A stretch of DNA of 32,000 nt from Mycolicibacterium smegmatis (GTDB lineage: Bacteria > Actinomycetota > Actinomycetes > Mycobacteriales > Mycobacteriaceae). The position numbers were made by a program, and so were the translations under genes. The stretch covers positions 4,500,001 to 4,532,000 of the forward strand of contig NZ_LN831039.1 in the NCBI RefSeq assembly GCF_001457595.1, read 5' to 3'. A model generated the notes under the pieces. That model was given only the letters and a program-made list of their open reading frames with translations, was not told the origin of the DNA and made no database searches. This document shows positions 10,393-29,167 of the stretch, in pieces (position 1 is the stretch's first letter; each line of letters opens with the position of its first letter).

Positions 10393-10407
10393 GCGAATCA
10401 GATGGAG

Positions 10408-10918: not shown

Positions 10919-10953
10919 TCAGAGCGAAGTTTGCGCTGAGGCGGTGCCTTTGC

Positions 10954-13233
10954 TCAGAGCAAGCCGAGTTCACGACCGCGGGCAACCGCCGAATTGCGGT
11001 TGTCGACGCCCAGTTTGCGGTAGATGGCCCGCTGGTGGGTCTTCACAGTATTGAGCGAGACGTAGAGTCGCTGACCGATGTCGCGGCGCGACAGCCGGGT
11101 GGCCAACAAACGAAGAACCTCAAGTTCTTTCGATGTCAGGTCCTCGGCGATGTGTTCGTCGTTGTACGCCGCGACCGCCACTCGGCGTCCCTGCCCGGCC
11201 GATCCGATCATGGGGTGCACCGCGACGTTGTCCGGACACCGGCGAAGCAGCGCACCTGCCTCGCTGCGACTTTTCTCGGCCGCTTCCAGATCTCCGAAGT
11301 CGTTCAGTATCTTCGCCCTCACCATCAAGGCCTTTGCGACCTCGAGGATTCCCGCGCCCTTGCGGGCCAGGCCGACCGCCAGATGAGCCGCGTCCGCGGC
11401 AGCGGCCCATTCACCGCTGGCGTACAGGACGACCGACACCGCCAACGACACTGCGACATCGATGAAATTCTGAGTGCCGGCCGGATCGGGGCCCACGCCC
11501 GTTGCCCGGCGAATCAGATGCTCGGCGTCAGCGAGCTGACCGGATTCGGCCTCGATCAGCGCGAGATAACCCAGCGCATACACACGATGGCGTCGGTCCC
11601 CTGTCCTCTCTGTCAGCTCTACGGCACGCTGCAGTTCCGTGCGGGCCTCGTCGATGTCGCCCGAGAAGTACAGGGCGGCCCCGTAGGTGACATGGGCCGC
11701 GGACCGAGCCGGCGGTGCCTCGCCGAATTCAAGGGTGGCCGCTTGGCGGGCCGCGTCGAGCGCATTCGTGACGTCACCAATTTTGAACGCGTAGACCTCA
11801 CGGAGCGCGACCAACTGCTCGGACAGGCCGGCTCGTGCAGAACCCTCGGCGGCCGATACTCCCTCGAGCCCGGCTGCGACCGCTTCGATCCATATCCGCG
11901 CATCGTCGAAAAGGCCGACGTTCAACGCGACCCACGCACGGATGGCACTGAGCCGTGGATCGCCCCTGACGGTGCCCTCGGGCAGAAGGTCGAGCCAGCC
12001 CGACACGGTCGACAGTCCACCGCCGGCCAGTTCGTTGGCCCAGTCCTCGACGATGAGGTCCGCGCTCTCGGCGATGTCTCCGGCGGCCACGAGGTGACGC
12101 AGCGCCTCGTCGACGAGACCCTCGGCCTCGAACCACTTCGCGGCTCGGCGGTGCAGCCCGGGCACGAGTTCGGGTTCGCAACGGTGCAACTCCGCACGCA
12201 GAAGCTCACCGAACAGGTGGTGATATCGATACCAGTGCCGTGACATGTCCAGCGGCACCAGGAAGAGATTTTCGCGCTCCATCTCCTCCAGCACCGATAC
12301 CGAGTCGGAAGACTGCAACACCGCGTCGCACAGCGCACCGTTGAACCGTCGCATCACCGAAGTACGCAGGAGGAAATTGCGAATCCGCGGTGACTGGCGG
12401 TCGAGCACCTCGGCCATAAGGTAATCGACGATATGGCGGTTGTCGCCTGCGAACGTCCTGATGAAGGCCGCTGCCTGCGCGCGCCCGGCGAGCGAGAGTG
12501 CGGCAAGGTAGAGACCTGCGGCCCACCCTTCCGTTCGCCGGTGCAACAGCCGGACATCCTCCTCGGTCAGGTCCAACCCCAGGACATCGTTGAGCAGCTG
12601 ACCGGCCTCGCCGACCCCGAAACGTAGATCGTCGCTGCGCATTTCGACGAGCTCACCGTTGGCACGTAGCCGAGCCAACGGCAGGAGCGGATCTGACCTG
12701 GTGGCCAGAACGACGTGCAGGTTCGCCGGCATCCTGCCGACGGCAAACGCCACCTGCTCGTGGATCGCGCGATTCACCACCATGTGGTAGTCGTCGAGAA
12801 TCAGCACGATCGGACGTGCGACCGCGTCCAGATCGTTCAGCAGGGTGGGCAGGACAACCTGAATCGGATCGGCACCCATGGTCAACAGTTCGACAGCGCG
12901 GGTACCCACACCCGGGCTGATCTTCTGCAGTGCCGCGATGACGTACATCCAGAACCACACGGGGTCGTTGTCGGATGCATCGAGTGACAGCCAGCCGAAT
13001 CGCTGGTCCTTGCCTGCACCCAGCGCCCATTGGGAAAGCAACGTGGTCTTGCCCCATCCCACAGGTGCACTCAGCAGGATCAGCCTGGACCGGCAGCTTT
13101 GCGACAGTGCATCAAGCAGGGCGGTGCGGTGAACGAGCTGACCGGCGATGGCCGGGATGTGCAATTTGGTGGCGAGCAGAACTGCGCGTTCCGTGTCACC
13201 ATGTCCCGCTGCGGGTCCCTCTGAGGCGTCCAT
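10954..13233 (-). CDS. large ATP-binding LuxR-family (LAL / MalT-like STAND) transcriptional regulator 1
   Basis: N-terminal LLATKLHIP... plus P-loop LLSAPVGWGKTTLL. Long helical/TPR-like middle region. C-terminal LuxR HTH LTSKELEVLRLLATRLSRRDIGQRLYVSLNTVKTHQRAIYRKLGV. The ATG at 13233 has GGAG upstream. In-frame alternative starts lie at 13383, 13449 and 13575. Confidence 0.85.
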   Translation of the reverse strand: MDASEGPAAGHGDTERAVLLATKLHIPAIAGQLVHRTALLDALSQSCRSRLILLSAPVGWGKTTLLSQWALGAGKDQRFGWLSLDASDNDPVWFWMYVIAALQKISPGVGTRAVELLTMGADPIQVVLPTLLNDLDAVARPIVLILDDYHMVVNRAIHEQVAFAVGRMPANLHVVLATRSDPLLPLARLRANGELVEMRSDDLRFGVGEAGQLLNDVLGLDLTEEDVRLLHRRTEGWAAGLYLAALSLAGRAQAAAFIRTFAGDNRHIVDYLMAEVLDRQSPRIRNFLLRTSVMRRFNGALCDAVLQSSDSVSVLEEMERENLFLVPLDMSRHWYRYHHLFGELLRAELHRCEPELVPGLHRRAAKWFEAEGLVDEALRHLVAAGDIAESADLIVEDWANELAGGGLSTVSGWLDLLPEGTVRGDPRLSAIRAWVALNVGLFDDARIWIEAVAAGLEGVSAAEGSARAGLSEQLVALREVYAFKIGDVTNALDAARQAATLEFGEAPPARSAAHVTYGAALYFSGDIDEARTELQRAVELTERTGDRRHRVYALGYLALIEAESGQLADAEHLIRRATGVGPDPAGTQNFIDVAVSLAVSVVLYASGEWAAAADAAHLAVGLARKGAGILEVAKALMVRAKILNDFGDLEAAEKSRSEAGALLRRCPDNVAVHPMIGSAGQGRRVAVAAYNDEHIAEDLTSKELEVLRLLATRLSRRDIGQRLYVSLNTVKTHQRAIYRKLGVDNRNSAVARGRELGLL

Positions 13234-13445
13234 GTCCGAACTCCACGAATTGAATGAATCCAACGTCAAGGTAGGAATATTCGGCCTTGACGAGTACTGG
13301 GTGAGCGCCCTTTGCCCGACTTTCCAGAGACTTTCTGCCGGGGCGCCGTGGCGCGTTGTCCGCGATGCTCGCGGTGCAGTCATTGAAACAGACGAATCCT
13401 GCGTGATTTCTGGCGGCTCGTACGGGCGGCGCTTGGTGGGCGCGC

Positions 13446-13532
13446 TCATGGCCGTCTGGACACCAGGATGTAGCCGCCGAAGCCGATCACCACCGGCACC
13501 ATCGCCAGCATTCCCAAAAATGTGCTGATCAT
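13446..13532 (-). CDS. candidate 28-aa hydrophobic small protein / upstream ORF
   Basis: TGAGGAAG precedes ATG; the ORF reads MISTFLGMLAMVPVVIGFGGYILVSRRP-stop. Third-codon positions are mostly G/C. Its TGA overlaps (ATGA) the in-frame ATG at 13449 of the LAL1 reading frame. It is too short to appear in the ORF track. Confidence 0.35.
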   Translation of the reverse strand: MISTFLGMLAMVPVVIGFGGYILVSRRP

Positions 13533-13746
13533 CTTCCTCAAACCTTTTGTATCGCTGGCGCGTTGGCCTCCTCAACCCATGACACCGCTGCGCACAGATG
13601 GTGAGCGCATCTGCCCATCATCGTTTTCAGCTCCGGGTCGTTGCGCTCCGCGGCTGGATCTCGGGTCGAGCGTCGACGGTTGCAGCGATTCAGAACTCGA
13701 TAATTTCTCTGATGACCACGTTCGCAGCCCCGGGCCGTCGCCACCA

Positions 13747-13761
13747 TCACCCGGGGGGTGA
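13747..13761. promoter_or_regulatory. variant of the palindrome with an expanded centre (TCACCC-GGG-GGGTGA)
   Basis: TCACCCGGGGGGTGA lies between the two LAL genes. The downstream GGGTGA-YGACNNY-TCRYCC module is not found at the canonical spacing on either strand. Confidence 0.4.
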
Positions 13762-13811
13762 TCTTTAGTGCGTCTTCGGCGTATGCCTAGTCGACACGAG
13801 CCGGATATGAG

Positions 13812-16643
13812 TTAATCAGCGCGGTGAATGAACTGCGCCAGTTGAGCCCGCGAAGTGACGCCGAGTTTGGCGAACGCGTTACGGACGTGCGTCTTCACCG
13901 TGTGCGGGGAAAGCTGCAGATGCTCTGCCACGGCCCGGTTGGTCGCGCCCTCGGCGATCAACTGCACGACCGTGAGTTCGGAATCGGTGAGACTGTCCCA
14001 GCCCGTTTTCGCACGTTGGGTTGCCACGACCCGCCGTTCCGCCCCCAGACGACGCAGCGCGCGGCCGACTCGGCGGGCATCAGCTGTCGCTCCGCACTCG
14101 CTGTAGGCGTCGAATGCCGTGTTGAGCTGGTCGAGCGCCTCGGTACCGCGTTGTGCGCGAATCAGTTCGGCGCCGGCATCTGCGGCCGCGCCGGCGTACA
14201 GAAGCGGCCGCGGGAATGCGCGAAGCGATTCCGCAGCACGCACCAGCGCGTCGGCGTCGTGCTCGAGAATGCCGCGGGAATACCCGACCACCGCCCTGAA
14301 CAGCGGCACCGCGGGCCGCTCACGACCGAGCACCTCGGCAGCCTGCAACACCCGCGCACGCAGACCCGCATCACCGGCGGCTGATGCCACCTGCGCGGCC
14401 AGGATCAGCCGGACCAACGCGTGCGGGAAAAGAGGTGTCCCCAGTAGGTTGATGTCGCCGAGCCAGCGCGCTGCCTCGTGGATGTCACCGCGATACCACG
14501 CCGCACGCGCGAGGACGTACGCGCAGGCTCGGCGCTGGCCGGGCGGACCGGTGCAGTGAGCATCGTGCGCATCGTTTGCCGTCTCCAGCAACAGGTTCCG
14601 GTCATCGGAGTGTGCCGCCACCTCGGCAAGGATCAGCATGCGGTGTACGTCCAGTTCCTGCGCGCCGGACGCCTGCGGAGGTGGCAGTGACTCAGCTGCG
14701 CCACGAGCGGCCGACAGGCGGCCCGCCGCGAGATGGACCCATCCGGCGTAGACGGCCCAGTTGTCGAGGACCATCGCGCTGCGTTCCCGGTCGGCTTGCG
14801 CGATGCCCTCGGCGGCCCGGTTCGTCGCGTCGTCCAGTCTTCCGACCACGGCCAGCATGTTTGCGTGGAACATCCCGGCATAGGCATGTGCCAGCGCCGT
14901 TTCATTCGTGTAGGCGATTCCACGAAGCTGTTCGAGGCGGCGCAACGCGCGGACCGCGTAACCCTCACCAGAATCGAGCAGGGCATGGGTGACCTCGGCC
15001 ATGATGATGGCCTCCGGATCACCGGTGGACGCGGCCGCGGCGGCAGCTTCGTCGGCTGCGGTACGTGACTGCGCGTCCTCGTCCTGCAATACCAGGTTGT
15101 AGGCCAGGGATGCCAGATGCCGGGCGCGGGTGAGCTCGCTGATGCCTCTCAATCTCAGCGCTCGGCGGCTCTCCGCCACCCGTTGCGGCGAGCTGTGCTT
15201 GGTCTGCGTCGGTAGCCGCAGCCGGATCTCGGCCTCCACCTCGGGCGACGCCGCATCCGCGAGCGCCATGTCGGCCAGCTCTTCGGCTTCACCGTAGCGG
15301 CTGGCCCGGTTGAGCCAACCCACCGTTTCCGCAATCAGGGATCCGTGTTCGGCGTCGTCGGCTGGCGACAGTTCCAACGCACACCTGCTCAGATCCGCGG
15401 CGGCGCCCGCATCTCCGCGGCCGACTGCCTGCGCGGCTTCTCGCAGTGCGTCGATCGCCTCCCGGTCACCCGGCTCGGCGCTGCGGGCCAGCTGGGTGGC
15501 GACCTCGGCAGGCGCAGCACCCATCCCGAGCATGACCGACGCCGATTGGCGTTCCATCGCCCGCCGCAACGACTTCGGCAACGACTGCCTGGTGGCCTCG
15601 CGCAGGAGATCGTGCCGGAATCTCAACTGTTCACCGTCTTCGATGAAAAGATCTGCGTGCACGGCCTCTTCGAGCGACGACAGCAACGACGTCGGCGATC
15701 GTTCGAGCATCGCGGCCAGCAAGCCCGCGGTGAAGCGGTCCGGCAGTACCGCTGCCACCCGGACCACCTCTGAGGCGCCCTCGGAGAGCAGATCGAGCCG
15801 TTGGTGCATGCTGGCACCGAGACGCCGTGGCAGAGCAAAACCCGAGGCCACCGCACGGCCATCGGAGAGGCCGAGCCGTCCCTCCTCGCCGAGACCGCGG
15901 ACGAGCTCGCTGATCAGGAACGGATTGCCGTGCGCCTTGGCAGCCAGACTCAGCAACGAGGTGTCGGCCCGTGCCCGCACCGCGTCCTGAACCATGTCGG
16001 CAACCGCATCCGGCGTCATCGCCGCCAGTCGCAGGAACGTGGCATCGGTTCGCTGCAACACCGACAACGTCTCCTGCACCGCCTGTCCCCCAGCCCCGGT
16101 GCGGGCCGTGAACACCCACAACACCGGCACATCGATCTCTGTGGTCAGCGACCGCAGCGCCAGCAACGTCGCGTTGTCAGCCCAATGAATGTCTTCGAGC
16201 ACGATCATCAGAGGCGTCTGGGCGGCGGCCGCACGGATCGCGTTGTGCAGATCGTGCACCACCCAGTAGCGCAGGTCTGCCGAGCCACCCAGTTCGCGCA
16301 GCGCCGCCACGTCGCCGATCGGGGGATCGGCGCGCAACGTGGCCATGAACAGCGAGAAGAACGGCACCGTCTGCTGATACTCGAACGCTTCCCCGAACAA
16401 CGTGCGAACCCCGCACTTGTCGGCCAGCCCCAACACCTCGGTCAGCAAGCGACTCTTCCCGATGCCCGGGGGCCCCTCGATCACCAGCACGCCGCCGCGC
16501 CCTCGGGCCGCTGCGGTAATCAGTGCACCGGCAGTTTTCAGCTCATCCGCTCGCCCACGAATCGGCGGCGTGATCAGCCGTTCGCCGCCGACGTCGAAAA
16601 AGTCGGTTGAAGGCCCCACCGGGGTGTCCTGTCTACGGTTCAC
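13812..16643 (-). CDS. large ATP-binding LuxR-family (AAA/STAND ATPase - TPR - LuxR HTH) transcriptional regulator 2
   Basis: 943 aa. P-loop VLVIEGPPGIGKSRLL, Walker-B-like LMIVLEDIHWAD, long alanine-rich helical repeats, and C-terminal LTDSELTVVQLIAEGATNRAVAEHLQLSPHTVKTHVRNAFAKLGV. The GTG start at 16643 is approximate. Confidence 0.85.
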   Translation of the reverse strand: MNRRQDTPVGPSTDFFDVGGERLITPPIRGRADELKTAGALITAAARGRGGVLVIEGPPGIGKSRLLTEVLGLADKCGVRTLFGEAFEYQQTVPFFSLFMATLRADPPIGDVAALRELGGSADLRYWVVHDLHNAIRAAAAQTPLMIVLEDIHWADNATLLALRSLTTEIDVPVLWVFTARTGAGGQAVQETLSVLQRTDATFLRLAAMTPDAVADMVQDAVRARADTSLLSLAAKAHGNPFLISELVRGLGEEGRLGLSDGRAVASGFALPRRLGASMHQRLDLLSEGASEVVRVAAVLPDRFTAGLLAAMLERSPTSLLSSLEEAVHADLFIEDGEQLRFRHDLLREATRQSLPKSLRRAMERQSASVMLGMGAAPAEVATQLARSAEPGDREAIDALREAAQAVGRGDAGAAADLSRCALELSPADDAEHGSLIAETVGWLNRASRYGEAEELADMALADAASPEVEAEIRLRLPTQTKHSSPQRVAESRRALRLRGISELTRARHLASLAYNLVLQDEDAQSRTAADEAAAAAASTGDPEAIIMAEVTHALLDSGEGYAVRALRRLEQLRGIAYTNETALAHAYAGMFHANMLAVVGRLDDATNRAAEGIAQADRERSAMVLDNWAVYAGWVHLAAGRLSAARGAAESLPPPQASGAQELDVHRMLILAEVAAHSDDRNLLLETANDAHDAHCTGPPGQRRACAYVLARAAWYRGDIHEAARWLGDINLLGTPLFPHALVRLILAAQVASAAGDAGLRARVLQAAEVLGRERPAVPLFRAVVGYSRGILEHDADALVRAAESLRAFPRPLLYAGAAADAGAELIRAQRGTEALDQLNTAFDAYSECGATADARRVGRALRRLGAERRVVATQRAKTGWDSLTDSELTVVQLIAEGATNRAVAEHLQLSPHTVKTHVRNAFAKLGVTSRAQLAQFIHRAD

Positions 16644-16705
16644 CGGACTGCCACTTCAGTGAGCCAGTCTAGGCCTTTTGATCACCGTCCCGAACACCGC
16701 ACGTG

Positions 16706-16747
16706 TCACCCGGGTGGTCTCGCCGCGGGGATGATGACGGTTCACCC
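16706..16747 (+). promoter_or_regulatory. composite element copy F, sense for ndh-HAD; the palindrome also lies 62 nt upstream of divergent LAL2
   Basis: Plus strand reads TCACCCGGGTGG-TCTCGCCGCGG-GGATGA-TGACGGT-TCACCC. It lies 116 nt upstream of the ndh ATG. Confidence 0.7.
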
Positions 16748-16863
16748 CGTGCGGCGGCAAGCTCAGTCGACGAAACACTGCCGCCCGCGAAGCAACGCCG
16801 TGGCGGACGTCCACGCGTCACCGGGCACCGGGCTCTCCGGCTCGTCGAGATCAAGGAGTTCAT

Positions 16864-18282
16864 ATGCGCCCAGCCAGAATTGTGATCGTCGGTAGCGGAT
16901 TCGCCGGCTTCGAATGCGCACGCCGGCTGAGCAAACAGCTGAAACGGCACCGATCCGAGGCAGTCGTGACCCTCATATCTCCGGTCGACTACCTGCTGTA
17001 CACCCCGCTTCTGCCCGAGGTTGCCGGTGGCGCAACAGATCCACGCTTCGCCACCGTGCCCCTGAACGACAGGCTCCCGGAAGTCCAGTTCATCCGCGCC
17101 TATGTCGATTCGGTGGACTTGTCCGCGCGTTCGCTGCGCTGTCGCGATCAGGAGAACATGTCCCACGAGCTTTCGTGGGATCGCCTCGTCCTGACCCCTG
17201 GCTCGATCAGTCGCCTGTTCGACATCCCCGGACTCGCCGAACATGGACGCGGGCTCAAATCGACGGCGCAGGCGCTTTTTCTGCGCGATCACATCATCGA
17301 ACAGTTCGAACTGGCACGCATCGACGAGGACCGTGAACGCGCGAACGCGCGTAAGACGGTGGTGGTTGTCGGATCTTCATATTCCGGAACGGAACTCATC
17401 GCACAGCTGTGCGCGATGGCTTCGGTGGCGGTGCACGACTTCGGATTCGAGCCCGGCGACGTACGACTGATCCTGGTGGAGCGTTCGGGACGGTTGATGC
17501 CCGAAATCGGGCCTGCGCTGGCAGTTCGCGCCGAACACGTGCTCAAACGGCGCGGCGTACGGTTCCTCACCGGTGTCACACTGTCTCGGGTCGCTGCCGA
17601 CCACGTCATCCTGAGCGACGGAACCCGCATCGGCACCTACACCGTCGCGTGGGTTGCCGGAGTCGTCGCCAGCCCGCTGATCACGGCCACGGGCCTGCCG
17701 ACCGAGAAGGGCAGGCTCAAGGTGGGTCCTGATCTGCAGGTCCCCGGTTTCGACGGCGTCTTCGCAGGCGGCGATGCCGCAGCGGTACCCGATGTCACCA
17801 ATCCCGGGACGATAACGCCGCCGACGGCCCAACACGCCACCAGGCAAGGCAAAATTCTGGCCCGAAACGTCGCCGCAAGCCTCGGCTACGGCAGCGCGCG
17901 CGAGTATCGGCACCGCGATCTCGGGACCGTTGTTGACCTGGGTCCCGGGTTCGCCGTCGCCAATCCTCTCAACATCCCGCTCTCCGGGTTTCTGGCGAAA
18001 CTCGTGACCCGCGCCTACCACCTGTACGCCATTCCGCGTAACGCCAACCGGTGGGCAGTGGCGCTCGGGTATCTCACCAACGTCCTGTTCGGGCGGCCAT
18101 TGGTGTCGATCGGCTTCGCCCAGCCGTCGTGGGCACAGTTTTCCGCGAGCGAGGAGTTCATGACCGCACCCACGGCGACGCAGCCACTCGACGAGCAGAT
18201 GTACACCGACGACCTCCGCTTCCAGGAAGCTTCCGCCGACCGGGCCTCGGCGCCGGGCGATCGGGCCAGAAAGGCAACATGA
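16864..18282 (+). CDS. ndh: type II NADH:quinone oxidoreductase (NDH-2), divergent copy
   Basis: AAGGAG RBS. RIVIVGSGFAG FAD motif, YTPLLPEVAGG, GGDAAAVPD. The second dinucleotide motif is atypical (VVVVGSSYSGTE instead of GxGxxG). Confidence 0.9.
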   Translation: MRPARIVIVGSGFAGFECARRLSKQLKRHRSEAVVTLISPVDYLLYTPLLPEVAGGATDPRFATVPLNDRLPEVQFIRAYVDSVDLSARSLRCRDQENMSHELSWDRLVLTPGSISRLFDIPGLAEHGRGLKSTAQALFLRDHIIEQFELARIDEDRERANARKTVVVVGSSYSGTELIAQLCAMASVAVHDFGFEPGDVRLILVERSGRLMPEIGPALAVRAEHVLKRRGVRFLTGVTLSRVAADHVILSDGTRIGTYTVAWVAGVVASPLITATGLPTEKGRLKVGPDLQVPGFDGVFAGGDAAAVPDVTNPGTITPPTAQHATRQGKILARNVAASLGYGSAREYRHRDLGTVVDLGPGFAVANPLNIPLSGFLAKLVTRAYHLYAIPRNANRWAVALGYLTNVLFGRPLVSIGFAQPSWAQFSASEEFMTAPTATQPLDEQMYTDDLRFQEASADRASAPGDRARKAT

Positions 18283-19091
18283 TCCGCCACTCTCCTCCGA
18301 TCCGACTGCTACTCGCCGACGTCGACGGCACCCTGGTGACGCACGACAAGGTCCTCACGCATCGCACCCTCGCCGCGGTCGCCAAGCTGCGGGAGGCCGG
18401 GATACTGTTCGCCGTCACCAGCGGCCGTCCGCCGCGCGGCATGTCGAAGCTCATCGAACCACTCGGACTGACAACGCCGCTCGCTGCGTTCAACGGCGGG
18501 CTGTTCGTGCGGCCGGATCTGTCGGTCATCGAACGACGCATGATTTCGGATGACGTGACAGCGGCGGTGATCGAGCAACTCGACACCGACGGGCTGACCG
18601 TATGGGTCTACCGGGGCGCGGACTGGCTGGTGCCCGATCCCCATGGGCCTCATGTGGCGCGGGAGGCCCGGACCGTCGGGTTCGGCCCGACACCGATCGA
18701 GAGCTACCCGCCGATCTCACGCGGTGTGTCCAAAATTGTTGGCGTCAGCGATGATCACGACGCGGTACGCAAGGCGGCAGCCCGGTTGCGCGAGCGCTTC
18801 GCAGACCACGTGTCGGCGGCGACATCACAACCGTACTACGTCGACGTCACCCATCCCGACGCGAACAAGGGCGCTGTGGTCTCTTTCTTGTCCGCCGCCT
18901 ACGACATCGCCACGGAGTCGATCGCCACGATCGGCGACATGGCGAACGACGTGGCGATGTTCCGGAAATCGGGGCTCAGCATCGCGATGGGAAACGCCGG
19001 CGACGAGGTCAGACGGGCCGCCCGTTGTGTCACCGCCTCGAACGCAGACGACGGGTTCGCCGACGCCGTCGAGCGGTTCGTCCTGCCGTAG
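18279..19091 (+). CDS. Cof-type HAD-IIB family hydrolase (phosphatase)
   Basis: ATGA overlap with the ndh stop. LLLADVDGTLV (DxDGT), VTSGRP, KG..., and IGDMANDVAMF motifs. Confidence 0.85.
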   Translation: MIRHSPPIRLLLADVDGTLVTHDKVLTHRTLAAVAKLREAGILFAVTSGRPPRGMSKLIEPLGLTTPLAAFNGGLFVRPDLSVIERRMISDDVTAAVIEQLDTDGLTVWVYRGADWLVPDPHGPHVAREARTVGFGPTPIESYPPISRGVSKIVGVSDDHDAVRKAAARLRERFADHVSAATSQPYYVDVTHPDANKGAVVSFLSAAYDIATESIATIGDMANDVAMFRKSGLSIAMGNAGDEVRRAARCVTASNADDGFADAVERFVLP

Positions 19092-19124
19092 CGGCGCCCG
19101 CTGGGGAATCGATCCGGTGACCCG

Positions 19125-19760
19125 CTACGACGAATCCAGCTGTTCGTTCTTGATGCCGGCGATGACAGCCGCGTCGGAGGCGACGACCTGGGTGGCGGTA
19201 TGCAGCACCGCACGCACGTCGTCGGCGGGAATGACCGCGGCCCCGGAGGTGTCGGCGAAAATGTAGTCGCCGGGAAAAACCGCCACCCCGCCGATCACGA
19301 CCGGATGGTTCGCCTCGAAGGGGGTGACAGTGTCGCCGCCCCACCGTGTTGTTTCGCCACGACAATAGACAGCCAGGTCGTACTGCTCGAGTTCGGCGAA
19401 ATCGCGCAGCCGACCATCGGCGAGTACGCCGGCGAGCCGGTGGTTTTCGGCACGCGAGAGCTTTGTTCCGCCACCCAACGAGACTTCGGTGAAACCGTTG
19501 CTCGCCAACACCAGAACGCAACCCTCACCGCCGCGCTCGATGGCCTGGTAGAACAACCGCCTGAAGTTGTGACAATCGGGCGGCAGGGCGGCCGAACAGG
19601 CAGGAAAGTAACTGATGGTCACCGCGGGCCCGAAGAGCCGGCGTCCGGGGGTCGGACTCACCAGGTCGAGAAGATGGCAGCGATGCCGATGCAGTCGCCC
19701 CATCGCATCGACGATGTCGGCCGTACGCACCCGGCCGGCGAGCAACTCAAGGGGCTCCAT
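19125..19760 (-). CDS. RraA-family protein (RraA / 4-hydroxy-4-methyl-2-oxoglutarate aldolase-like)
   Basis: [21 protein letters not shown]...GGGTKLSRAENHRLAGVLADGRLRD...VVIGGVAVFPGDYIFADTSGAAVIP. The ATG overlaps the transketolase TGA (TGATG). Confidence 0.8.
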   Translation of the reverse strand: MEPLELLAGRVRTADIVDAMGRLHRHRCHLLDLVSPTPGRRLFGPAVTISYFPACSAALPPDCHNFRRLFYQAIERGGEGCVLVLASNGFTEVSLGGGTKLSRAENHRLAGVLADGRLRDFAELEQYDLAVYCRGETTRWGGDTVTPFEANHPVVIGGVAVFPGDYIFADTSGAAVIPADDVRAVLHTATQVVASDAAVIAGIKNEQLDSS

Positions 19761-21709
19761 CAGGCCGTCAGCGTCTCGTCGTCGTCGGATCGGCCGTCGT
19801 CGGATCGGCCGTCGTCGGATCGGCCGTCGTCGGCCTGCAACAGGTGTCGCGCAGCCTTGTCGATACTTGCCGCGTCTATCGCGGCATCCGCGAGCAGTTC
19901 GGCAGGAGTTCCCGAGCCCGGCATGGCGCGAACGGCCAGGTGCATCAGCTTCAGACGCGGTGTTTCCGCACCCGAGATGGCCTCGAGCACGGCCGAGCCG
20001 AGTCCACCCTCGGGGTGATGGTCCTCGGCGATGACCAATCGTGCACCGGTGTCGCGCACAGCTTCGAGCAGCGTGTCCCGGTCGATCGGCTTGACGGAGT
20101 AGACATCGATGACGCGGGCCGCGATCCCGTCGCGGTGCAGCGATTCGGCGGCGGCCAGGCATTGGTGGACGGTGACACCGGCACCGATCAGGGTGACGTC
20201 GTCGGCGCTGCTGGACCGCAGCGTGTGGGAGCCGCCGATGGTGAACACGGTGGCCGGCTCGTAGAGGACCGGGTAGGCACCACGGGTGGTCCTCAGATAA
20301 CGGACCCCATCGGCATCCGCCATCAGGTCGACCAGCGCGACCGTACTTGTCGCGTCGCTGGGATAGAGGACGGTCGCGCCGTGGACGGACCGCATCATCG
20401 CCAGGTCTTCCAGCGCCATCTGAGAGGGTCCGTCGGCACCGATCTCGACGCCGGCATGGGACCCGATCAGGCAGATGTTCGCCTGTGAGACGGCCGCCAT
20501 GCGGATGAAGTCATGCGCCCGGGTCAAAAACGCGGCAAAGGTCGATGCGAACGGAATGTAGTGGCGGACATGGAGACCGACGGAAGAGGCAACGAGTTGT
20601 TGCTCGGCGATGAACATTTCGAAGTATCGCTCGGGGTGGTGCTCGGTGAACTCTGCGGCGCCGGTGGAGTTGCTGACTTCGCCGTCGAGCGCCACCACCC
20701 GGCGATTGACCGCGCCCAGTGCGGCCACCGCGGCTCCGTATGCCGCCCGGGTGGCGACCTTCTCACCCGGTGCGTAACGCGGCCGGTCCGAGAACCCATC
20801 CGGATTGCCCGCCCCGGGCGCCGACGATTGACCGGAGCGTGACGCCGGTTTCGGTCCCGCGACGGTCAGACCCTCGACCTCGCCGAGCTCGGCCAGTGCG
20901 CGCCGCGCCATTTCGGGCGGGAAAGCCTTGCCATGCCAACCCTCTCGGTCCTCGACTTCGCTGAAACCGCGACCCTTGACGGTTCTCGCGAGGATCACCG
21001 TCGGCTGCGTTGTGTTACGCGCGGCGGTGAGCGCCTGGTCGATGGCCTCCAGGCGATGGCCGTCGACGGAGATCGCCCGCGCACCGAAAGCTTCCACGCG
21101 TTTGGCGTAGGTCTCCAGATCCCAACCGAACTCGGTGGGTCCGCGCTGGCCCAACCGGTTGACATCGACGATGACGGTGAAGTTCGAAAGGCCGTAATAG
21201 CCGGCCTTGTCCAGTGCCTCCCAGACCGACCCCTCGGCCATCTCACTGTCGCCGCACAGCGTCCACACGTGAAATCCAGACCTGTCGAGGAACTTGCCCG
21301 CGAGCGCGACGCCGACCCCGATGGCGATCCCCTGTCCCAGTGAGCCGCTGGCAACGTCGACCCACGGCAACACAGGCGTGGGGTGGCCTTGCAGGCGTGA
21401 GCCGAAGCGGCGGTAGCCGGTCATCAGTTCCGTGTCGGTGATGACACCGACGGCTTTGAACGCGGCGTACAACAGCGGCGAGGCATGCCCTTTGGACAGG
21501 ATGAAGTGGTCGTTGTCAGGGTGATCCGGGCGCTCCCAGTCATAGCTGAGGTGGCGAGCGAGCAGAACCGCCGTCAGATCGGCGGCCGACATGCTCGAAG
21601 TCGGATGTCCGGAGCCGGCGGCAGTGCTGGCTCGGATGGCGTCGGCGCGCAGTTGCCGCGCCAGTCGCCCCACCAGCGTGGTGTCGATGCGATCGTTCGA
21701 TTCATTCAA
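19760..21709 (-). CDS. transketolase-family protein (single-chain, about 650 aa)
   Basis: [41 protein letters not shown] (ThDP GDG-like), and [18 protein letters not shown] motifs. The TTG start at 21709 overlaps the ctaD stop by 8 nt. Confidence 0.85.
19781..19835. repeat. 15-bp perfect tandem repeat, 3 full copies plus a 10-bp partial copy
   Basis: GTCGTCGGATCGGCC occurs three times (19781-19825), followed by GTCGTCGGCC. On the minus strand it encodes (DDGRS)x3 at the C-terminus of the transketolase. It lies 21-75 nt upstream of the RraA-like start. Confidence 0.9.
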
Positions 21710-23453
21710 CGGGATGGCTCCTCGCCTGTGGTTGTGGAAGCGTCACCGCACCGGGTCCTCCCTGGGTGCGCCCGGGGTGGGACTCGGCACGAAGCCGCTC
21801 GATCATGTGGGGATAGTGCAACTCGAAAGCTGGTCGCTCGGAACGGATTCTGGGCAGCTCGGTGAAGTTGTGCCGCGGCGGCGGGCAGCTGGTGGCCCAC
21901 TCCAGGGAGTTGCCGTAGCCCCACGGATCGTCGACCGTGACGGGCTCGCCGTATCGCCAGCTCTTGAACACGTTCCACACGAACGGCAGCATCGAGACGC
22001 CCAGGATGAACGAACCGATGGTGGAAACGATGTTGAGGGTGGTGAACCCGTCGGTGGGCAGGTAGTCGGCGTATCGGCGTGGCATGCCTTCTGCGCCGAG
22101 CCAGTGGTGCACCAGGAATGTGGTGTGGAATCCGATGAGGGTCAGCCAGAAGTGCAGCTTGCCGAGCCGGTCATCCAGCAGTCGGCCCGTCATCTTCGGA
22201 AACCAGAAGTACACCCCGGCGTACGTTGCGAAGACGATCGTGCCGAACAGCACGTAATGGAAGTGCGCCACGACGAAATAGCTGTCGGTGACGTGGAAGT
22301 CCAGTGGCGGGCTGGCCAGGATCACCCCGGTGAGCCCACCGAGCAGGAACGTCACGAGAAAGCCCACCGAGAACAACATCGGCGTCTCGAACGTCAACTG
22401 GCCCTTCCACATGGTGCCGATCCAGTTGACGAATTTGATCCCGGTCGGCACCGCGATCATGAACGTCATGAAGGAGAAGAACGGCAGCAGCACCGCGCCG
22501 GTGGCGTAGAGGTGGTGGGCCCACACCGCGATCGACAGAGCTCCGATGGAGATGGTGGCGTAGACCAGCGTGGTGTAGCCGAAGACCGGTTTGCGGGAGA
22601 ACACCGGGAAGATCTCGGTGACGATGCCGAAGAAGGGCAACGCGATGATGTAGACCTCGGGATGGCCGAAGAACCAGAACAGGTGCTCCCACAACATGGT
22701 CCCGCCGTTGGCCGAGTCGAAGACGTGTGCGCCCAGATTGCGGTCCGCGGCCAGGCCGAACAGCGCCGAGGTCAGAAGCGGGAAAGCGACCAGCACGATC
22801 ACGCTGGTCACCAGGATGTTCCAGGTGAAGATCGGCATCCGGAACATGATCATGCCCGGTGCGCGCATGCACACCACCGTGGTGATCATGTTGACCGCAC
22901 CGAGGATGGTGCCCAGTCCACCGACGATCAATCCGAAGATCCACAGATCACCACCCGCGCCCGGCGAGTGCATGGCGTTCGACAGCGGGGTGTAGGCGGT
23001 CCACCCGAAGTCGGCGGGCCCACCCGGGGCGAGGAAGCCGCCGAGTGCGATCGACGCACCGAAGAGAAAGAGCCAGAACGACAACGCATTCAGTCGCGGA
23101 AACGCCACATCGGGGGCGCCGATCTGCAGAGGCACCACGAGGTTGGCGAACCCGAACACGATGGGAGTGGCATAGAACAGCAGCATCACCGTGCCGTGCA
23201 TGGTGAACAGCTGGTTGTACTGCTCGTTGGAGAGGAACTGCAGGCCGGGTACCGCCAACTCGGTGCGGAGCAGCAGTGCCATCAATCCGCCGATGAAGAA
23301 GAAGATGAAGCACGCGACGACGTACATCATCCCGATCAACTTGTGGTCGGTTGTGGTCACCAACTTGTACAGCAGCGTCCACCTGGGGCCGAGCCGTTGC
23401 GGAAACGGTCTCCGCGCCAGGAGTTCTCCTGCCGATGGAGCGTGGGTCGTCAA
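21702..23453 (-). CDS. ctaD: cytochrome c oxidase (aa3-type) subunit I, orphan copy
   Basis: [36 protein letters not shown] and AHFHYV metal-ligand motifs are all intact. The TTG at 23453 is preceded by AGGAGAG and gives the usual N-terminal length; the ORF track extends to the GTG at 23498. No ctaC or ctaE in the window. Confidence 0.9.
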
Positions 23454-23545
23454 CGGTCCGGTTCTCTCCTGTCCGTCGCACGTGCGACGGTCTTCCACCC
23501 GTCGCCGCGCATGCCCTTGTCGAGACTCGATCCTGGCCCGGTACC

Positions 23546-23587
23546 GGATGAGCTGTCTTCACCCAGCCGCACCGATCACCCGGGTGA
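23546..23587 (-). promoter_or_regulatory. composite element copy D, sense for ctaD-transketolase-rraA
   Basis: Minus strand reads TCACCCGGGTGA-TCGGTGCGGCT-GGGTGA-AGACAGC-TCATCC. It lies 92 nt upstream of the TTG at 23453, and its palindrome end (23587) is 28 nt downstream of the GNAT stop at 23616. Confidence 0.7.
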
Positions 23588-23615
23588 ACAGTCGCCGCGC
23601 ATGAACTTCCCTCGC

Positions 23616-24221
23616 TCAGGTCCGCGAGGCACAACCCGGTTCCGGCAGATCCAGGTCCGCCTTCCGGAGTCGATACACCTGCAGCGACAACCCGTAGTAC
23701 TTCGTGGTCTCGCCGACCCACTCCATACCGACCCGCCGCGCGGTGGCCACGGCACGACGATTTCCTGGCCGCATGACCGCGAACACCTCGCTGAGGCCGG
23801 CGTTCTCGAAGGCCTGGTGCGCGACGGCATGGCCGGCTTCCGAGCCGTATCCGTGACCCCACATCGCGGGGGCGATCTGCCATCCGATCTCCAGGTCGCT
23901 GCGCCCGGGCGGAAGCGGGAGAAGAGTCACTCCCCCGATCACCTGTCCGGATCGGTGGTCGGTGATTGCCCATCGCCCCAACGGCAATCCCTCGGAGTCG
24001 CTCTCGGCGATCCAGGAGCCCAACACATGTCGCATGTCCTTGCGGTCGACGGCGTTGGGCAGCGCCGGACACAGCCAGCGAGCCACCTCCGGGTCTCCGT
24101 AGATCGCACACGCCGCGACATCATCGTCCAGACGCCACGGCCGCAACATCAGACGGTGTGTGCGGATCTGTCGCGTCACGGGATCGAGTTCGACGTGGCG
24201 TCGATCGCCTGAGGGGTTCAT
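23616..24221 (-). CDS. GNAT-family N-acetyltransferase (RimJ/RimL-like)
   Basis: THRLMLRPWRLDDDVAACAIYGDPEVARWL ... EIGWQIAPAMWGHGYGSEAGHAVAHQAF ... The ATG at 24221 is 5 nt after the SDR2 stop. Confidence 0.8.
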   Translation of the reverse strand: MNPSGDRRHVELDPVTRQIRTHRLMLRPWRLDDDVAACAIYGDPEVARWLCPALPNAVDRKDMRHVLGSWIAESDSEGLPLGRWAITDHRSGQVIGGVTLLPLPPGRSDLEIGWQIAPAMWGHGYGSEAGHAVAHQAFENAGLSEVFAVMRPGNRRAVATARRVGMEWVGETTKYYGLSLQVYRLRKADLDLPEPGCASRT

Positions 24222-24226: not shown

Positions 24227-24997
24227 TCAGTTCCGCCCCGCCGTGAATCCTCCGTCGACGTTGAGGATCATTCCCGTGATCCAACTCGACTCGTCGGAGA
24301 GCAGATACCTGATGGCGCCTGCAATGTCGGTCGGAGTACCGACTCGCCCGAGCGGGTGAAGCGGTGCGAACTCGCCGAGTGTGGCATCGATCTCGTCCGT
24401 GGGGAACCACCGCTGAAGAGCCGGGGTTCTCACCGCGGCCGGCGACACCGCGTTGACGCGGATCTTGTGCCGGGCGAGTTCAATGGCCAGATTGTGGGTG
24501 AGCGCGTGCAGGCCGGCCTTCTGCATCGAATGCCCCGTCGAAGGAGTGACGCCGAGCGCCTGATGCGCCCACATGCTGCCGATGTTGACGATGGAACCAC
24601 CATCGCCGCCGGCGATCATGCCGCGCACCACGGTCTGGGTGAGGAAAAACAGCGCATAGTTGAGCTCCATGTACGCGTCGTAGTCCAGTTGCCCGTACTC
24701 GAGAAACGGTTTGGGGATGAAGAATCCGGCCGCATTGACGAGCAACGTGGCGTCTCGGTGTTGCTCGCCGAGCACGCGCTGGATATCGGTGACGGCATCG
24801 CGGTCGGTCAGCTCCGCGGAAATACCCCAGGCGTCGCCACCCCGGTTCACCAGATCGTCCAGGGTCTCGTCGACACGGGCTTTCGAGTGCCCGACGACCA
24901 CCGCGCTGCCACCGTGGTCGACGACGTCGGCGGCGACCCGGCGGCCGATACCGGCGCTGCCGCCGACGACGACCACCTTCTTCCCCTCCAGATGCAT
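24227..24997 (-). CDS. SDR-family oxidoreductase, paralog 2 (catalytic Tyr replaced by His)
   Basis: GGAGGGAG RBS, then [18 protein letters not shown]. Colinear with, and by eye about 70% identical to, the SDR at 2290-3066. The YxxxK position reads GHSMQK (CAT codon). Confidence 0.85.
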   Translation of the reverse strand: MHLEGKKVVVVGGSAGIGRRVAADVVDHGGSAVVVGHSKARVDETLDDLVNRGGDAWGISAELTDRDAVTDIQRVLGEQHRDATLLVNAAGFFIPKPFLEYGQLDYDAYMELNYALFFLTQTVVRGMIAGGDGGSIVNIGSMWAHQALGVTPSTGHSMQKAGLHALTHNLAIELARHKIRVNAVSPAAVRTPALQRWFPTDEIDATLGEFAPLHPLGRVGTPTDIAGAIRYLLSDESSWITGMILNVDGGFTAGRN

Positions 24998-25964: not shown

Positions 25965-26885
25965 TCAATCCTCTGTGACGCGCACGATCGTCTTTCCCGT
26001 GGTGCGCTTCTTTTGGTTGAAGGCGCTGGGCGCGTCGGCGAGCGGCACCACGCGCCCGACGACGGGCTTGAGCCGTCCCGTCCGTACCCGAGCGGCGAGG
26101 TCGGCGAGACGTGCGCTGTCAGGTTCGACGAGGAAGTACAGTGCCCGTCCGTCGCGCGGCTGGGTCTTGGGTGGCTCGGCGAGGGTGACCAGCGTTCCTC
26201 CGGCGCGTACGAGCGCGATCGAACGTTCCATGATCTCTCCGCCGATCACGTCGAACACCACGTCGACCTCCCCGGCGTCTTCGAGCTTGTCATCGTCCAG
26301 GTCGAGGAAAGTGTGGGTGCCCAGCTCGAGAGCCCGATCCCGATCGGCGGCCCGCCCGGTGCCGATGACCCGCGCCCCCACCTCACGAGCGAGCTGCACC
26401 GCAATGGAGCCGACACCACCTGCCGCACCGTGGATCAGCACGGTTTGTCCCGCGACGAGCTGCGCGTGCTCGAACAGGCCCTGCCACGCGGACAACCCCG
26501 AGATCGGCAGCGCCGCGGCCAATGTGTGGTCGACGTCGTAGGGCAACGGTGCGAGGTGACGCGTCTCCACTGCGGCGTACTCGGCCAGGGAGCCGTTGCG
26601 TGCCCAGTCTGCCAATCCGAACACGCGCTGACCGATCGTGAAACGTGTGGTGCCGTATCCCAATTCGACCACAACACCCGACAGTTCGTGTCCGGGCACA
26701 CTGGGTGTGCGGTCGCGTCCCGAGCGCTCGGTCCACGTATCCGGCCAGTCGAGTTCGCCCCGTGTGAACCCCGCGGCGTGCACACGTACGACGACGTCGT
26801 TCTCGGAGACCACGGGATAGGGCAGTTCTGTCAGCGACAGACCGGAGACGCCGGCATCACGATCGGAAACTGTCACAGCCTTCAT
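25965..26885 (-). CDS. MDR-family NADPH:quinone oxidoreductase / zinc-type ADH-like protein 2
   Basis: AGGAGGA RBS. MKAVTV..., VPGHELSGVVVELG, VLIHGAAGGVGSIAVQLA. ATGA overlap with the upstream small ORF. Confidence 0.85.
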   Translation of the reverse strand: MKAVTVSDRDAGVSGLSLTELPYPVVSENDVVVRVHAAGFTRGELDWPDTWTERSGRDRTPSVPGHELSGVVVELGYGTTRFTIGQRVFGLADWARNGSLAEYAAVETRHLAPLPYDVDHTLAAALPISGLSAWQGLFEHAQLVAGQTVLIHGAAGGVGSIAVQLAREVGARVIGTGRAADRDRALELGTHTFLDLDDDKLEDAGEVDVVFDVIGGEIMERSIALVRAGGTLVTLAEPPKTQPRDGRALYFLVEPDSARLADLAARVRTGRLKPVVGRVVPLADAPSAFNQKKRTTGKTIVRVTED

Positions 26886-27166
26886 TGCGCATCCTCCTGA
26901 TAAGGGTTGGGGAGGCCGACCGACTCGCCGTCTCCATTGGCGATGGCACCCGTCGGGCCGGCCGCGGACCATTGCTGAACGCTGACGAGCTCGAGTCCCA
27001 GATCGCGGACGCGGTCGAGCAGTCCGTACAGTTGTGACTGGTCCCGGATCTCGCCGACGAACATCGACTCTGTCGCACCAGCTTCAAGGCGCATCCCCTC
27101 CAACGCGGACCCGAACCGCTCGGTGACGCACCCCCGAATGCAGATCTGGTACATCGTCGGCTGCAT
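26882..27166 (-). CDS. small (94 aa) hypothetical protein, first gene of the operon
   Basis: GGAGGG RBS. MQPTMYQICIRGCVTERFGSALEGMRLEAGATESMFVGEIRDQSQLYGLLDRVRDLGLELVSVQQ... It resembles small actinobacterial proteins of unknown function (recollection only). Confidence 0.55.
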   Translation of the reverse strand: MQPTMYQICIRGCVTERFGSALEGMRLEAGATESMFVGEIRDQSQLYGLLDRVRDLGLELVSVQQWSAAGPTGAIANGDGESVGLPNPYQEDAQ

Positions 27167-27211: not shown

Positions 27212-27253
27212 GGGTGAGCAGTCATCACCCCGCATGTGAGATCACCCGGGTGA
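27212..27253 (-). promoter_or_regulatory. composite element copy E, sense for the small-ORF/QOR2/cupin2/SDR2/GNAT operon
   Basis: Minus strand reads TCACCCGGGTGA-TCTCACATGCG-GGGTGA-TGACTGC-TCACCC. It lies 45 nt upstream of the ATG at 27166. Confidence 0.7.
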
Positions 27254-29165: not shown

Positions 29166-29167
29166 GC

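Follow-up and report, generated by a model that had tools for sequence, protein, structure and literature searches.

Additional genes for the catalytic subunit of a terminal oxidase are reportedly already known from other bacteria. In Pseudomonas aeruginosa, the orphan catalytic subunits of the cbb3 oxidases, encoded by ccoN3Q3 and ccoN4Q4 apart from the structural operon, are said to be expressed under particular conditions and to form hybrid isoforms. Paracoccus denitrificans is likewise said to carry two very similar genes for subunit I of an aa3 oxidase, ctaDI and ctaDII, one of which is solitary. The locus described here is reminiscent of both. It lies in a 32,000-nt stretch of the Mycolicibacterium smegmatis genome (the window; G+C content of about 65%) and spans MSMEG_4430–4439. 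It contains an extra gene for subunit I of the aa3-type oxidase, ctaD (MSMEG_4437), and the same promoter-like sequence element (the element) precedes this gene, the gene for an NDH-2-like flavoprotein (MSMEG_4433), and further operons of the surrounding gene island.

MSMEG_4437 itself was listed in 2010: Table S1 of Berney & Cook 2010 gives three ctaD genes, MSMEG_1040, MSMEG_2320, and MSMEG_4437, the first two of which are annotated "contains a frameshift". Besides this array listing, the literature found on the locus is limited to LuxR-family mentions of MSMEG_4430 and MSMEG_4431. No description was found in the literature of the conserved element, its regulon, the TAL-ctaD-tkt operon, the CtaD signature of the island, or the subfamily of NDH-2-like proteins with a GxSxxG motif. 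We hold, with about even confidence, that the locus is a conserved mycobacterial stress island, in which a regulon switched by LAL proteins would join NADPH supply, repair, and variant respiratory parts.

The accessory CtaD paralog and its neighbors

The five genes at the center of the comparison are the following.

21702–23453, − strand: aa3-type oxidase subunit I paralog MSMEG_4437 (ctaD), 583 amino acids (NF050116)
19760–21709, − strand: short single-chain transketolase MSMEG_4436 (tkt), 649 amino acids, TTG start (NF004559)
19125–19760, − strand: RraA/aldolase-family protein MSMEG_4435, 211 amino acids (Pfam RraA-like)
16864–18282, + strand: NDH-2-like flavoprotein MSMEG_4433, 472 amino acids (Pyr_redox_2; matches to solved NDH-2 structures)
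18279–19091, + strand: Cof-type HAD-IIB phosphatase MSMEG_4434 (TIGR00099)

Locus tags were assigned via the literature, namely the transcription start site table of Martini 2019, the table of Berney & Cook 2010, and papers on the LuxR family. The Martini 2019 table lists a start 4064 nt upstream of MSMEG_4433, which places the start of MSMEG_4433 at exactly window position 16864. The gene order derived from the sequence agrees with that of Berney & Cook 2010 for MSMEG_4433–4439, where the genes are named "dehydrogenase" (4433), "Cof protein" (4434), "dimethylmenaquinone methyltransferase" (4435), "transketolase" (4436), "cytochrome c oxidase subunit I, ctaD" (4437), and "acetyltransferase" (4439).

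MSMEG_4437 begins at a TTG codon behind the Shine-Dalgarno sequence GGAGAG and scores 998.8 bits against NF050116, the model of the actinobacterial aa3 subunit I, for which the cut-off is 880 (Pfam COX1, E = 6e-158). The motifs HGT (residue 86), PDVAFPRLN (114), GHPEVY (263), WAHH (311), TGIK (337), and HFHY (397) are all present, and the six metal-ligand histidines, the cross-linked tyrosine, and the residues of the D- and K-channels align identically to those of M. smegmatis CtaD. The protein is thus the complete haem-copper oxidase subunit I that the initial annotation had taken it for. It is 86% identical to the canonical 575-amino acid CtaD of Protein Data Bank (PDB) entry 6ADQ and seven further M. 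smegmatis entries, differing from it at roughly 80 positions, and 582 of its 583 residues are matched in chain V of entry 6HWH, which represents the M. smegmatis CIII2CIV2 supercomplex. The canonical copies are located elsewhere (MSMEG_1040 and MSMEG_2320), so MSMEG_4437 is not the sole ctaD, and by these comparisons it is a true accessory paralog of canonical CtaD. The initial annotation had also remarked on the lack of ctaC and ctaE nearby. No COX2 or COX3 gene is present in the 32-kb window, and to that extent the remark stands; it is not distinctive, as canonical ctaD is also encoded apart from ctaC (MSMEG_4268) and ctaE (MSMEG_4260).

In a neighbor-joining tree, the island CtaDs of M. smegmatis, M. 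agri, M. intracellulare, and several metagenomic relatives form one group, from which the canonical copy is separate. The ratio of nonsynonymous to synonymous substitution rates (dN/dS) is 0.11–0.13 for MSMEG_4437 against three island copies, indicating purifying selection. Three alignment columns separate the island clade, the sharpest of which is the residue that follows the two CuB histidines: all island CtaDs, including those of M. colombiense and a metagenome-assembled genome (MAG), read WAHH-L, and 113 of the 120 nearest homologues read WAHH-M. We take this residue to be methionine in the bovine, Rhodobacter, and E. coli enzymes as well. Because leucine replaces an otherwise invariant methionine beside the two CuB histidines, we propose, as a hypothesis, that the island CtaD might be an isoform that better withstands oxidation or that has altered kinetics in some other way. 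The subunit swapping or remodelling of the respiratory chain that the initial annotation had suggested for MSMEG_4437 remains plausible as a hypothesis.

Another ctaD paralog, "CtaD_3" of M. liflandii (positions 8001–9734 of fetched locus L133), reads WAHH-M and lies between two alpha/beta-hydrolase genes near panB and glnA2-glnE. Given this unrelated context, mycobacteria have gained extra ctaD copies more than once.

The three genes of the ctaD strand are joined by overlapping codons, as had been read initially. At the ctaD/tkt junction, GAGGAGCCATCCCGTTGAATGA, tkt begins at a TTG that lies before the end of ctaD, giving an overlap of 8 nt: the TGA of ctaD sits inside TTGAATGA, and the TTG there, with GAGGAG in front, is the start of the 649-amino acid transketolase, in agreement with the N termini of its orthologues (MSELADRRIDTT...). 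At the tkt/RraA junction, CTGATGG, the tkt stop and the ATG of the RraA-like gene share one base (TGATG). Co-transcription and coupled translation of the three genes are therefore likely in M. smegmatis, to judge from these overlaps. The chaining of ctaD to tkt, on which the initial annotation had placed weight, holds for these codons and does not extend to a fixed unit across lineages, in which the orders TAL-ctaD-tkt, TAL-ctaD, and TAL-tkt-RraA are all observed. We read the overlaps as a by-product of the packing of co-regulated genes and not as a sign of physical partnership.

MSMEG_4436 scores 937.5 bits against NF004559 (cut-off 488), contains the N, Pyr, and C domains, and matches human TKT with E = 1e-170. 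Aligned with 4KXU, it keeps the catalytic residues (GHP, GHA, GHP, GD(S)-N, WHGK, IAEQ, GSH...DGPSQ, and RT(T)R), and on this alignment it is a short "mammalian-type" single-chain transketolase. Its dN/dS is 0.13–0.19. Homologues about 70% identical occur across Actinomycetota outside any island context, for example in Jatrophihabitans, so the transketolase family is far wider than the regulon. A role in the pentose-phosphate pathway is argued from the neighbors in relatives, which include TAL and, at one locus, G6PD, 6PGD, and PGI. Within the gene, positions 19780–19833 hold a perfect 15-nt tandem repeat, CGTCGTCGGATCGGC, of about 3.6 copies, which encodes (DDGRS)x3 in the C-terminal tail. 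The mycobacterial orthologues carry a variable low-complexity tail of about 25 residues, and the Streptomyces homologues are without it.

MSMEG_4435 matches only the Pfam superfamily RraA-like (98 bits). Assignment as a true RraA was rejected (NF006875, 45.9 bits versus 136; TIGR02998, 34 versus 241), as was assignment as an HMG/CHA aldolase–oxaloacetate decarboxylase of the LigK/PcmE type (TIGR02798, 49.8 versus 304.5; NF006731, 47 versus 179).

On the opposite strand, MSMEG_4433 finds its nearest solved structures among NDH-2 enzymes: that of C. thermarum (4NWZ, E = 4e-43), YjlD of B. subtilis (1e-39), and that of S. aureus (5e-34). Its first dinucleotide-binding motif, GSGFAG at residue 10, conforms to GxGxxG; the second, GSSYSG at residue 170, reads GxSxxG and does not. 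The second motif, noted as atypical in the initial annotation, is a property of the clade, with G[A/S]SY[S/A]G present in all eight orthologues read. In the wider NDH-2-like family, GxSxxG occurs in 3 of 125 cluster representatives and GxGxxG in 119. The protein keeps the acidic residue that follows the second β-strand and has the motif AQHATRQG. The gene overlaps that of the HAD protein MSMEG_4434 by ATGA (18279–18282) in the junction ACATGATCC, and MSMEG_4434 scores 164.2 bits against TIGR00099, above the Cof-subfamily cut-off of 137; both the overlap and the Cof-type assignment are as first annotated.

A shared promoter-like element

The composite motif TCACCCGGGTGR-N14/15-GAnGAC has 7 matches in the 32-kb window and none in 100 shuffles. 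All seven copies are intergenic, and each is directed at a gene. The initial annotation had the NDH-2-like gene and ctaD wired to one element, and this element proves to be conserved, directional, and promoter-like. Its copies and the two promoters built around the copies of most concern here are as follows.

23555–23587, − strand: element copy upstream of ctaD
23530–23587, − strand: ctaD promoter element, with palindrome TCACCCGGGTGA at 23587–23576 and box GGGTGAAGAC
16706–16738, + strand: element copy upstream of the NDH-2-like gene
16706–16763, + strand: promoter element of the NDH-2-like gene, with palindrome TCACCCGGGTGG at 16706–16717 and proximal box GGGATGATGAC
3147–3179, − strand, and 3203–3235, + strand: back-to-back element copies, facing SDR-MsrB leftward and cupin-DoxX-disulfide reductase-ADH_zinc-RidA-MFS rightward
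10361–10392, − strand: element copy upstream of a DUF5709/NmrA-like gene
10886–10918, − strand: element copy upstream of the gene for a 135-amino acid protein, 36 nt past the MSMEG_4430 stop
27221–27253, − strand: element copy upstream of an operon for a 94-amino acid protein, ADH_zinc, cupin, SDR, and GNAT

In the NDH-2-like gene promoter, a −35-like ATGACG begins at 16732, the predicted −10 hexamer is CAAGCT (16758–16763), and transcription is predicted to start at about 16770. In the ctaD promoter, the corresponding features are a −35-like AAGACA from 23561, the predicted −10 hexamer CAGGAT (23535–23530), and a predicted start at about 23523. If an offset of 4,499,942 between the window and the mc2155 chromosome holds, these two predicted starts fall there at about 4,516,712 and 4,523,465. 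The ctaD promoter and the promoter of the SDR-MsrB operon (3110–3180) are 70% identical over 71 nt, which suggests that ctaD-tkt-RraA moved together with a duplicated promoter. The operon of the 94-amino acid protein terminates just upstream of the ctaD element.

Comparison of 154 distinct copies from many species gives a common layout: TCACCCGGGTGA, 11 nt, and then GGg-TGAtGACa.CTCACCC. In 115 of the 154 copies, the distance from the T of TGAtGAC to a downstream hexamer of the form nAnnnT is exactly 26 nt; the runner-up offset accounts for 10. The element thus reads as a promoter with a −35-like TGACa, a 17-nt spacer, and a weak −10 hexamer (nAnnnT). Counted from this fixed 26-nt offset and not from mapped transcription starts, the GG(G/A)TGA(T/G)GAC box would be centered near −37, over the −35-like TGACa, and the perfect palindrome TCACCCGGGTGA near −58. 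Taken together, this anatomy reads as that of an activator-type promoter. A scan of 16500–23800 for generic sigma-70 promoters and terminators yielded no consensus promoter and no convincing terminator. Readings of the element as a SigF-type (GTTT-N15-17-GGGTA) or an ECF-type (GGAAC...CGTC/GTT) promoter were rejected, as the −35 positions misfit and there were only single chance matches.

The element scan covered one genome per species. The matches listed comprise at least 120 tiles, mostly from Mycobacterium, Mycolicibacter, Mycolicibacterium, and uncultured Actinomycetota, with a few probable chance matches elsewhere; the neighbors were identified by tblastn of the window proteins against the fetched loci. 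Among the matches listed, the element stands in many species upstream of SDR-MsrB and, again in many species and with a spacing of 85–86 nt, upstream of an operon for the 94-amino acid protein, ADH_zinc, cupin, DoxX, disulfide reductase, ADH_zinc, RidA, and MFS. It precedes the NDH-2-like gene in at least six species (M. colombiense, M. scrofulaceum, Mycobacterium sp. HNNTM2301, and three others), ctaD in Mycolicibacter kumamotonensis, and the transketolase gene at other loci, including one MAG in which it leads directly to tkt. In MAG L129, copies lie before DUF6510-RraA and before the NDH-2-like gene, beside a MalT-like regulator.

The placement of ctaD with respect to the other genes varies. 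In M. agri, the element leads into SDR-MsrB-MsrA-TAL-ctaD-tkt-...-molybdoenzyme-FAD reductase-DUF6510-RraA. Mycolicibacterium sp. XJ662 has the same order with a MalT-like regulator at its head, and its TAL/ctaD and ctaD/tkt pairs overlap by 4 and 8 nt, respectively. Mycobacterium sp. Soil538 has SDR-MsrB-MsrA-TAL-ctaD-molybdoenzyme-FAD-RraA, with no tkt after ctaD and with the NDH-2-like gene and tkt next door. In M. intracellulare, the element leads to TAL-tkt-RraA-GNAT, and SDR-SDR-MsrB-MsrA-ctaD follows further along. The TAL-ctaD(-tkt) sandwich with overlapping junctions therefore recurs in M. agri, XJ662, and Soil538. As the ctaD-tkt junction varies among lineages, the constant feature across species, on these gene orders, is membership of one regulon and not a partnership of ctaD with tkt.

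Several further observations concern the content of the islands. An Oxidored_molyb gene and a FAD_binding_6/NAD_binding_1 reductase gene follow ctaD or tkt in three species (L004, 10326–11669; L131, 11987–13327; L132, 5720–7108); the pair resembles an MsrP-like sulfoxide-repair pair and is absent from the M. smegmatis window. In MAG L129, positions 12316–21606, adjoining the MalT-like regulator, hold genes for a Cof-type HAD, 6PGD, PGI, a transketolase fragment, a GH15 glucoamylase/trehalase-like protein, and G6PD. Positions 1–17521 of the uncultured Actinomycetota contig L130 hold three tandem AAA_16-GerE genes (the second LAL type) and the gene for the MalT-like regulator, followed by two element copies. 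One of these copies heads DUF417-cydA-cydB, which connects the element to an alternative terminal oxidase for a second time.

The left edge of the window is an SDR-MsrB-[IS]-MsrA operon, in which an insertion sequence (IS) element with an rve integrase open reading frame (446–1459, − strand) separates MsrB (1884–2300) from the start of MsrA (207–1, off the window edge); MsrB and MsrA are adjacent in relatives, in the SDR-MsrB-MsrA-TAL-ctaD operon. Two SDR genes (2290–3090 and 24227–24997) share 75% nucleotide identity over about 440 nt, and the island also contains two flavoprotein disulfide reductases, two ADH_zinc genes, and two cupins; these modules suggest repeated internal duplication of the island. 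Just past the last element-driven operon, positions 28956–30103 hold the genes for a MazE-MazF (PemK) toxin-antitoxin pair and a TetR-family gene. The 94-amino acid protein, which belongs to no family (26882–27166, − strand), is in many mycobacteria the product of the gene that directly follows the element, with an unchanging spacing of 85–86 nt. Solirubrobacterales MAGs (L109, L114, and L126) also keep it behind the element, with 45–47% identity and a spacing of 75–92 nt. Its single-sequence structure model (predicted local distance difference test score, pLDDT, of 69) has a ferredoxin-like fold resembling ACT or PII domains, and the predicted structure has no significant match in the PDB.

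Candidate regulators and rival explanations

Two genes for regulators lie between the element copies, in the middle of the island.

10954–13575, − strand (annotated start at about 13233, 759 amino acids): MalT-like LAL regulator MSMEG_4430 (MalT model)
13812–16643, − strand: second LAL regulator MSMEG_4431, with AAA_16 and GerE domains, divergent from the NDH-2-like gene

The literature describes MSMEG_4430 as a 759-amino acid "MalT-like LuxR family" regulator and MSMEG_4431 as a LAL-type LuxR protein. The product of MSMEG_4430 is 100% identical to a protein assigned to M. smegmatis. The Martini 2019 table lists a transcription start 142 nt upstream of the annotated start of MSMEG_4430 (4513317, − strand; window position of about 13375), which favors the 759-amino acid form over the longer 873-amino acid open reading frame, and an antisense start inside the gene (mc2155 position 4512742, + strand; window position of about 12800). 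Against the MalT model, MSMEG_4430 reaches 389 bits, short of the 537 required of a MalT equivalog. Its orthologues adjoin element copies in three further genomes (L027, L129, and L130) and head the island in L131, and the LAL genes are the only regulators that repeatedly adjoin the element across genomes. The GGGTGAtGAC box of the element resembles, without being identical to, the E. coli MalT box, which we take to be GGGGA(T/G)GAGG. Given the MalT-model score, the repeated adjacency, the activator-like anatomy of the promoter, and this presumed likeness of the boxes, the pair MSMEG_4430/4431 most likely represents the activators of the element.

In the explanation that we prefer, every operon of the island would be driven by the same activator-type promoter, and the two ATP-binding LuxR-family (LAL/MalT-like) proteins encoded mid-island would switch these promoters on upon sensing a ligand. 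One output would be isozymes of the pentose-phosphate pathway for NADPH (the transketolase; TAL in relatives; G6PD, 6PGD, and PGI in one MAG), accompanied by the sugar-phosphatase-like HAD enzyme and the RraA-family aldolase-like enzyme. Another would be NAD(P)H-consuming repair and detoxification by MsrA, MsrB, SDRs, quinone oxidoreductases, flavoprotein disulfide reductases, RidA, cupins, and DoxX. The respiratory output would comprise the NDH-2-like flavoprotein with its changed dinucleotide-binding motif and the alternative CtaD, which would stand in for its canonical counterpart in the aa3 oxidase of the CIII2CIV2 supercomplex. The gene content, with MsrA, MsrB, quinone and disulfide reductases, RidA, DoxX, and, in relatives, an MsrP-like molybdoenzyme, points to a signal of the oxidant or electrophile type, harmful to methionine and to quinone-linked chemistry. 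A fuller version, which we regard as rather doubtful, is a "replace and repair" programme in many non-tuberculous mycobacteria, in which a MalT-like sensor would call up an oxidation-hardened CtaD, a variant NDH-2, methionine-sulfoxide reductases, and a private pentose-phosphate module, and the aa3 oxidase would be rebuilt under oxidant or electrophile stress.

The published expression profiles bear on the signal. The initial annotation had named hypoxia among the conditions under which these genes might respond, and this did not hold up: in the chemostat arrays of Berney & Cook 2010, MSMEG_4433–4437 are flat in slow growth and at 2.5% and 0.6% O2 (MSMEG_4437: 1.3/1.2/0.9), from which hypoxia is not the trigger. 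MSMEG_1040 and MSMEG_2320 follow ctaC, ctaE, ctaF, and qcrCAB (0.3–0.5/0.8–1.0/2.9–4.1), all of which are down in slow growth and up at 0.6% O2.

Several points weigh against the preferred explanation. The flat arrays are among them, as is the finding in published arrays that MSMEG_4431 rises 4.46-fold in slow growth and 4.44-fold at 0.6% O2 with MSMEG_4430 and MSMEG_4433–4437 unchanged. In the supplementary tables available from an H2O2 RNA-seq study, MSMEG_4430, 4433, 4435, 4436, 4437, and 4440 do not appear, nor do MSMEG_4430–4432 and 4435–4437 in those available from two studies of respiration inhibition. The link to the LAL proteins is drawn from adjacency and the presumed resemblance to the MalT box, and the promoter layout is also compatible with repression or with a different regulator. 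In L129, one element copy is followed by a LysR gene, and the islands of M. agri and XJ662 are bordered by ECF sigma genes. With regard to CtaD, the element-driven copy of Mycolicibacter kumamotonensis keeps the methionine, one of the three clade-specific changes runs the opposite way (leucine to methionine), and the occurrence of ctaD paralogs in unrelated contexts means that paralogy alone is not special. Finally, 6HWH probably carries the MSMEG_4437 sequence because the canonical copies are annotated as frameshifted, which counts against taking that entry as assembly of the paralog.

The same regulon and promoter could also work by de-repression, which we consider a serious rival, though a less likely one. 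A dimeric repressor of the TetR, MarR, ArsR, or LysR type, encoded nearby or elsewhere, would bind the GGGTGA/TCACCC repeats over the −35 region and the palindrome and be released by an electrophile or oxidant, and the LAL genes would be mere neighbors or targets. The second inverted repeat, GGGTGA-N7-TCACCC, does lie over the −35 hexamer and reach some way into the spacer, where repressors classically bind, and the −35-like TGACa is near consensus and might fire without an activator; the LysR gene in L129, directly downstream of its element copy, and the 4.5-fold rise of MSMEG_4431 with unchanged target genes fit as well. However, the −10 hexamer, nAnnnT without the first T, is weak, and many copies have a degenerate distal half-site in the second repeat, as would be expected of asymmetric activator boxes more than of a symmetric operator; the repeated adjacency of the LAL genes as sole regulators also speaks for them. 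The four complementary hexamers could in principle form alternative TCACCC/GGGUGA hairpins, as in a transcribed RNA leader, riboswitch, or attenuator, an idea that is scarcely credible: an Rfam scan of the window gave 0 matches at the gathering score, and the GGGTGA...TCACCC pair shows no compensatory change in 154 copies, 23 of which have an A.C mismatch at one pair, none compensated. The perfect 6-0-6 palindrome cannot fold as a hairpin, and the −10-like hexamer lies at a fixed distance downstream. The hairpin reading was rejected on the lack of covariation and the fixed −10 position.

For ctaD itself, it is quite improbable that the copy is a redundant duplicate in a rearranging island, contributing gene dosage only, rarely or never expressed, and joined to tkt by accident. 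The 86% identity and shared catalytic residues, the flat arrays, the variable gene order around ctaD, the IS element and duplicated modules that mark the island as plastic, and the paralogs at unrelated places would all be expected of such a copy, but the island CtaDs of fast- and slow-growers make up a separate clade with a dN/dS of 0.11–0.13, share a private substitution at an otherwise invariant site beside the CuB ligands, and are placed repeatedly behind the same element or inside the SDR-MsrB-MsrA-TAL operon. That the island CtaD acts outside the normal aa3 oxidase, as a stand-alone haem-copper protein or paired with redox partners from the island to scavenge O2, peroxide, or NO, is highly improbable. 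No ctaC, ctaE, or ctaF is present in any island read, and Oxidored_molyb and FAD_binding_6 genes lie within one to three genes after ctaD in M. agri, XJ662, and Soil538. Solitude is uninformative, however, as canonical mycobacterial ctaD is also encoded alone; subunit I of A-type oxidases on its own has no electron entry site, and at 86% identity the subunit interfaces are probably retained.

Comparison with known systems

The bcc-aa3 supercomplex is a mycobacterial drug target (telacebec class), and M. smegmatis serves as its structural model. A second, differently regulated catalytic subunit could alter the properties of the oxidase or its sensitivity to inhibitors or oxidants under stress, and the island ctaD, with its private substitution beside the active site, is present in this model organism and in M. 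avium-complex species. As a practical matter, the deposited supercomplex structure 6HWH carries the sequence of the paralog and not that of canonical CtaD. The conserved motif also defines a regulon of mostly uncharacterised redox genes, for which MSMEG_4430/4431 is a candidate regulator pair.

Canonical mycobacterial CtaD (MSMEG_1040/MSMEG_2320, 6ADQ chain F; Rv3043c in M. tuberculosis) belongs to the same NF050116 family as MSMEG_4437, with identical ligands to haem a, haem a3, and CuB and identical D- and K-channel motifs. The main differences are that MSMEG_4437 has a separate type of promoter and regulon, does not change along with ctaC, ctaE, and qcr in slow growth or hypoxia, reads WAHH-L rather than WAHH-M, carries Y245F, and is flanked by pentose-phosphate and repair genes. 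The ccoN orphans of P. aeruginosa differ in being C-type and not A-type, in having other regulators, and in lying outside operons for sugar pathways or methionine-sulfoxide repair; subunit swapping has reportedly been demonstrated there, whereas here it is inferred. For Paracoccus ctaDI/ctaDII, we know of no shared promoter element or stress island, and to our knowledge the role of the second copy is unclear.

Similar to NDH-2 (C. thermarum 4NWZ; mycobacterial Ndh, MSMEG_3621), MSMEG_4433 has an architecture of two Rossmann folds, the GxGxxG motif for flavin adenine dinucleotide (FAD), an acidic residue after the second strand, and a C-terminal region that resembles membrane-anchoring helices. 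It differs in its second motif, GxSxxG, and in having AQHAxRQG in place of AQxAxQ, and it is more distant from the mycobacterial Ndh-type structure (E = 7e-31) than from the Firmicute type (4e-43).

The regulatory side of the locus is most reminiscent of the E. coli MalT regulon and the LAL family (e.g., mycobacterial IniR, NF038181), with which its regulator shares a STAND ATPase, TPR repeats, and a GerE helix-turn-helix. The predicted layout of the target promoters may also correspond, with G-rich asymmetric boxes in both orientations, the proximal one near −37, and a weak core. The targets of MalT are maltodextrin genes, whereas those here are redox and respiratory genes, and two different LAL proteins are encoded side by side. 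In its logic, the regulon resembles those of the E. coli SoxRS type, which likewise pair pentose-phosphate NADPH with reductases and with isozymes of core enzymes that resist stress. Neither its regulator nor its gene set is related to those of SoxRS, and the set behind the element, which would answer to a putative stress, includes the non-oxidative branch (tkt and tal) and an oxidase subunit.

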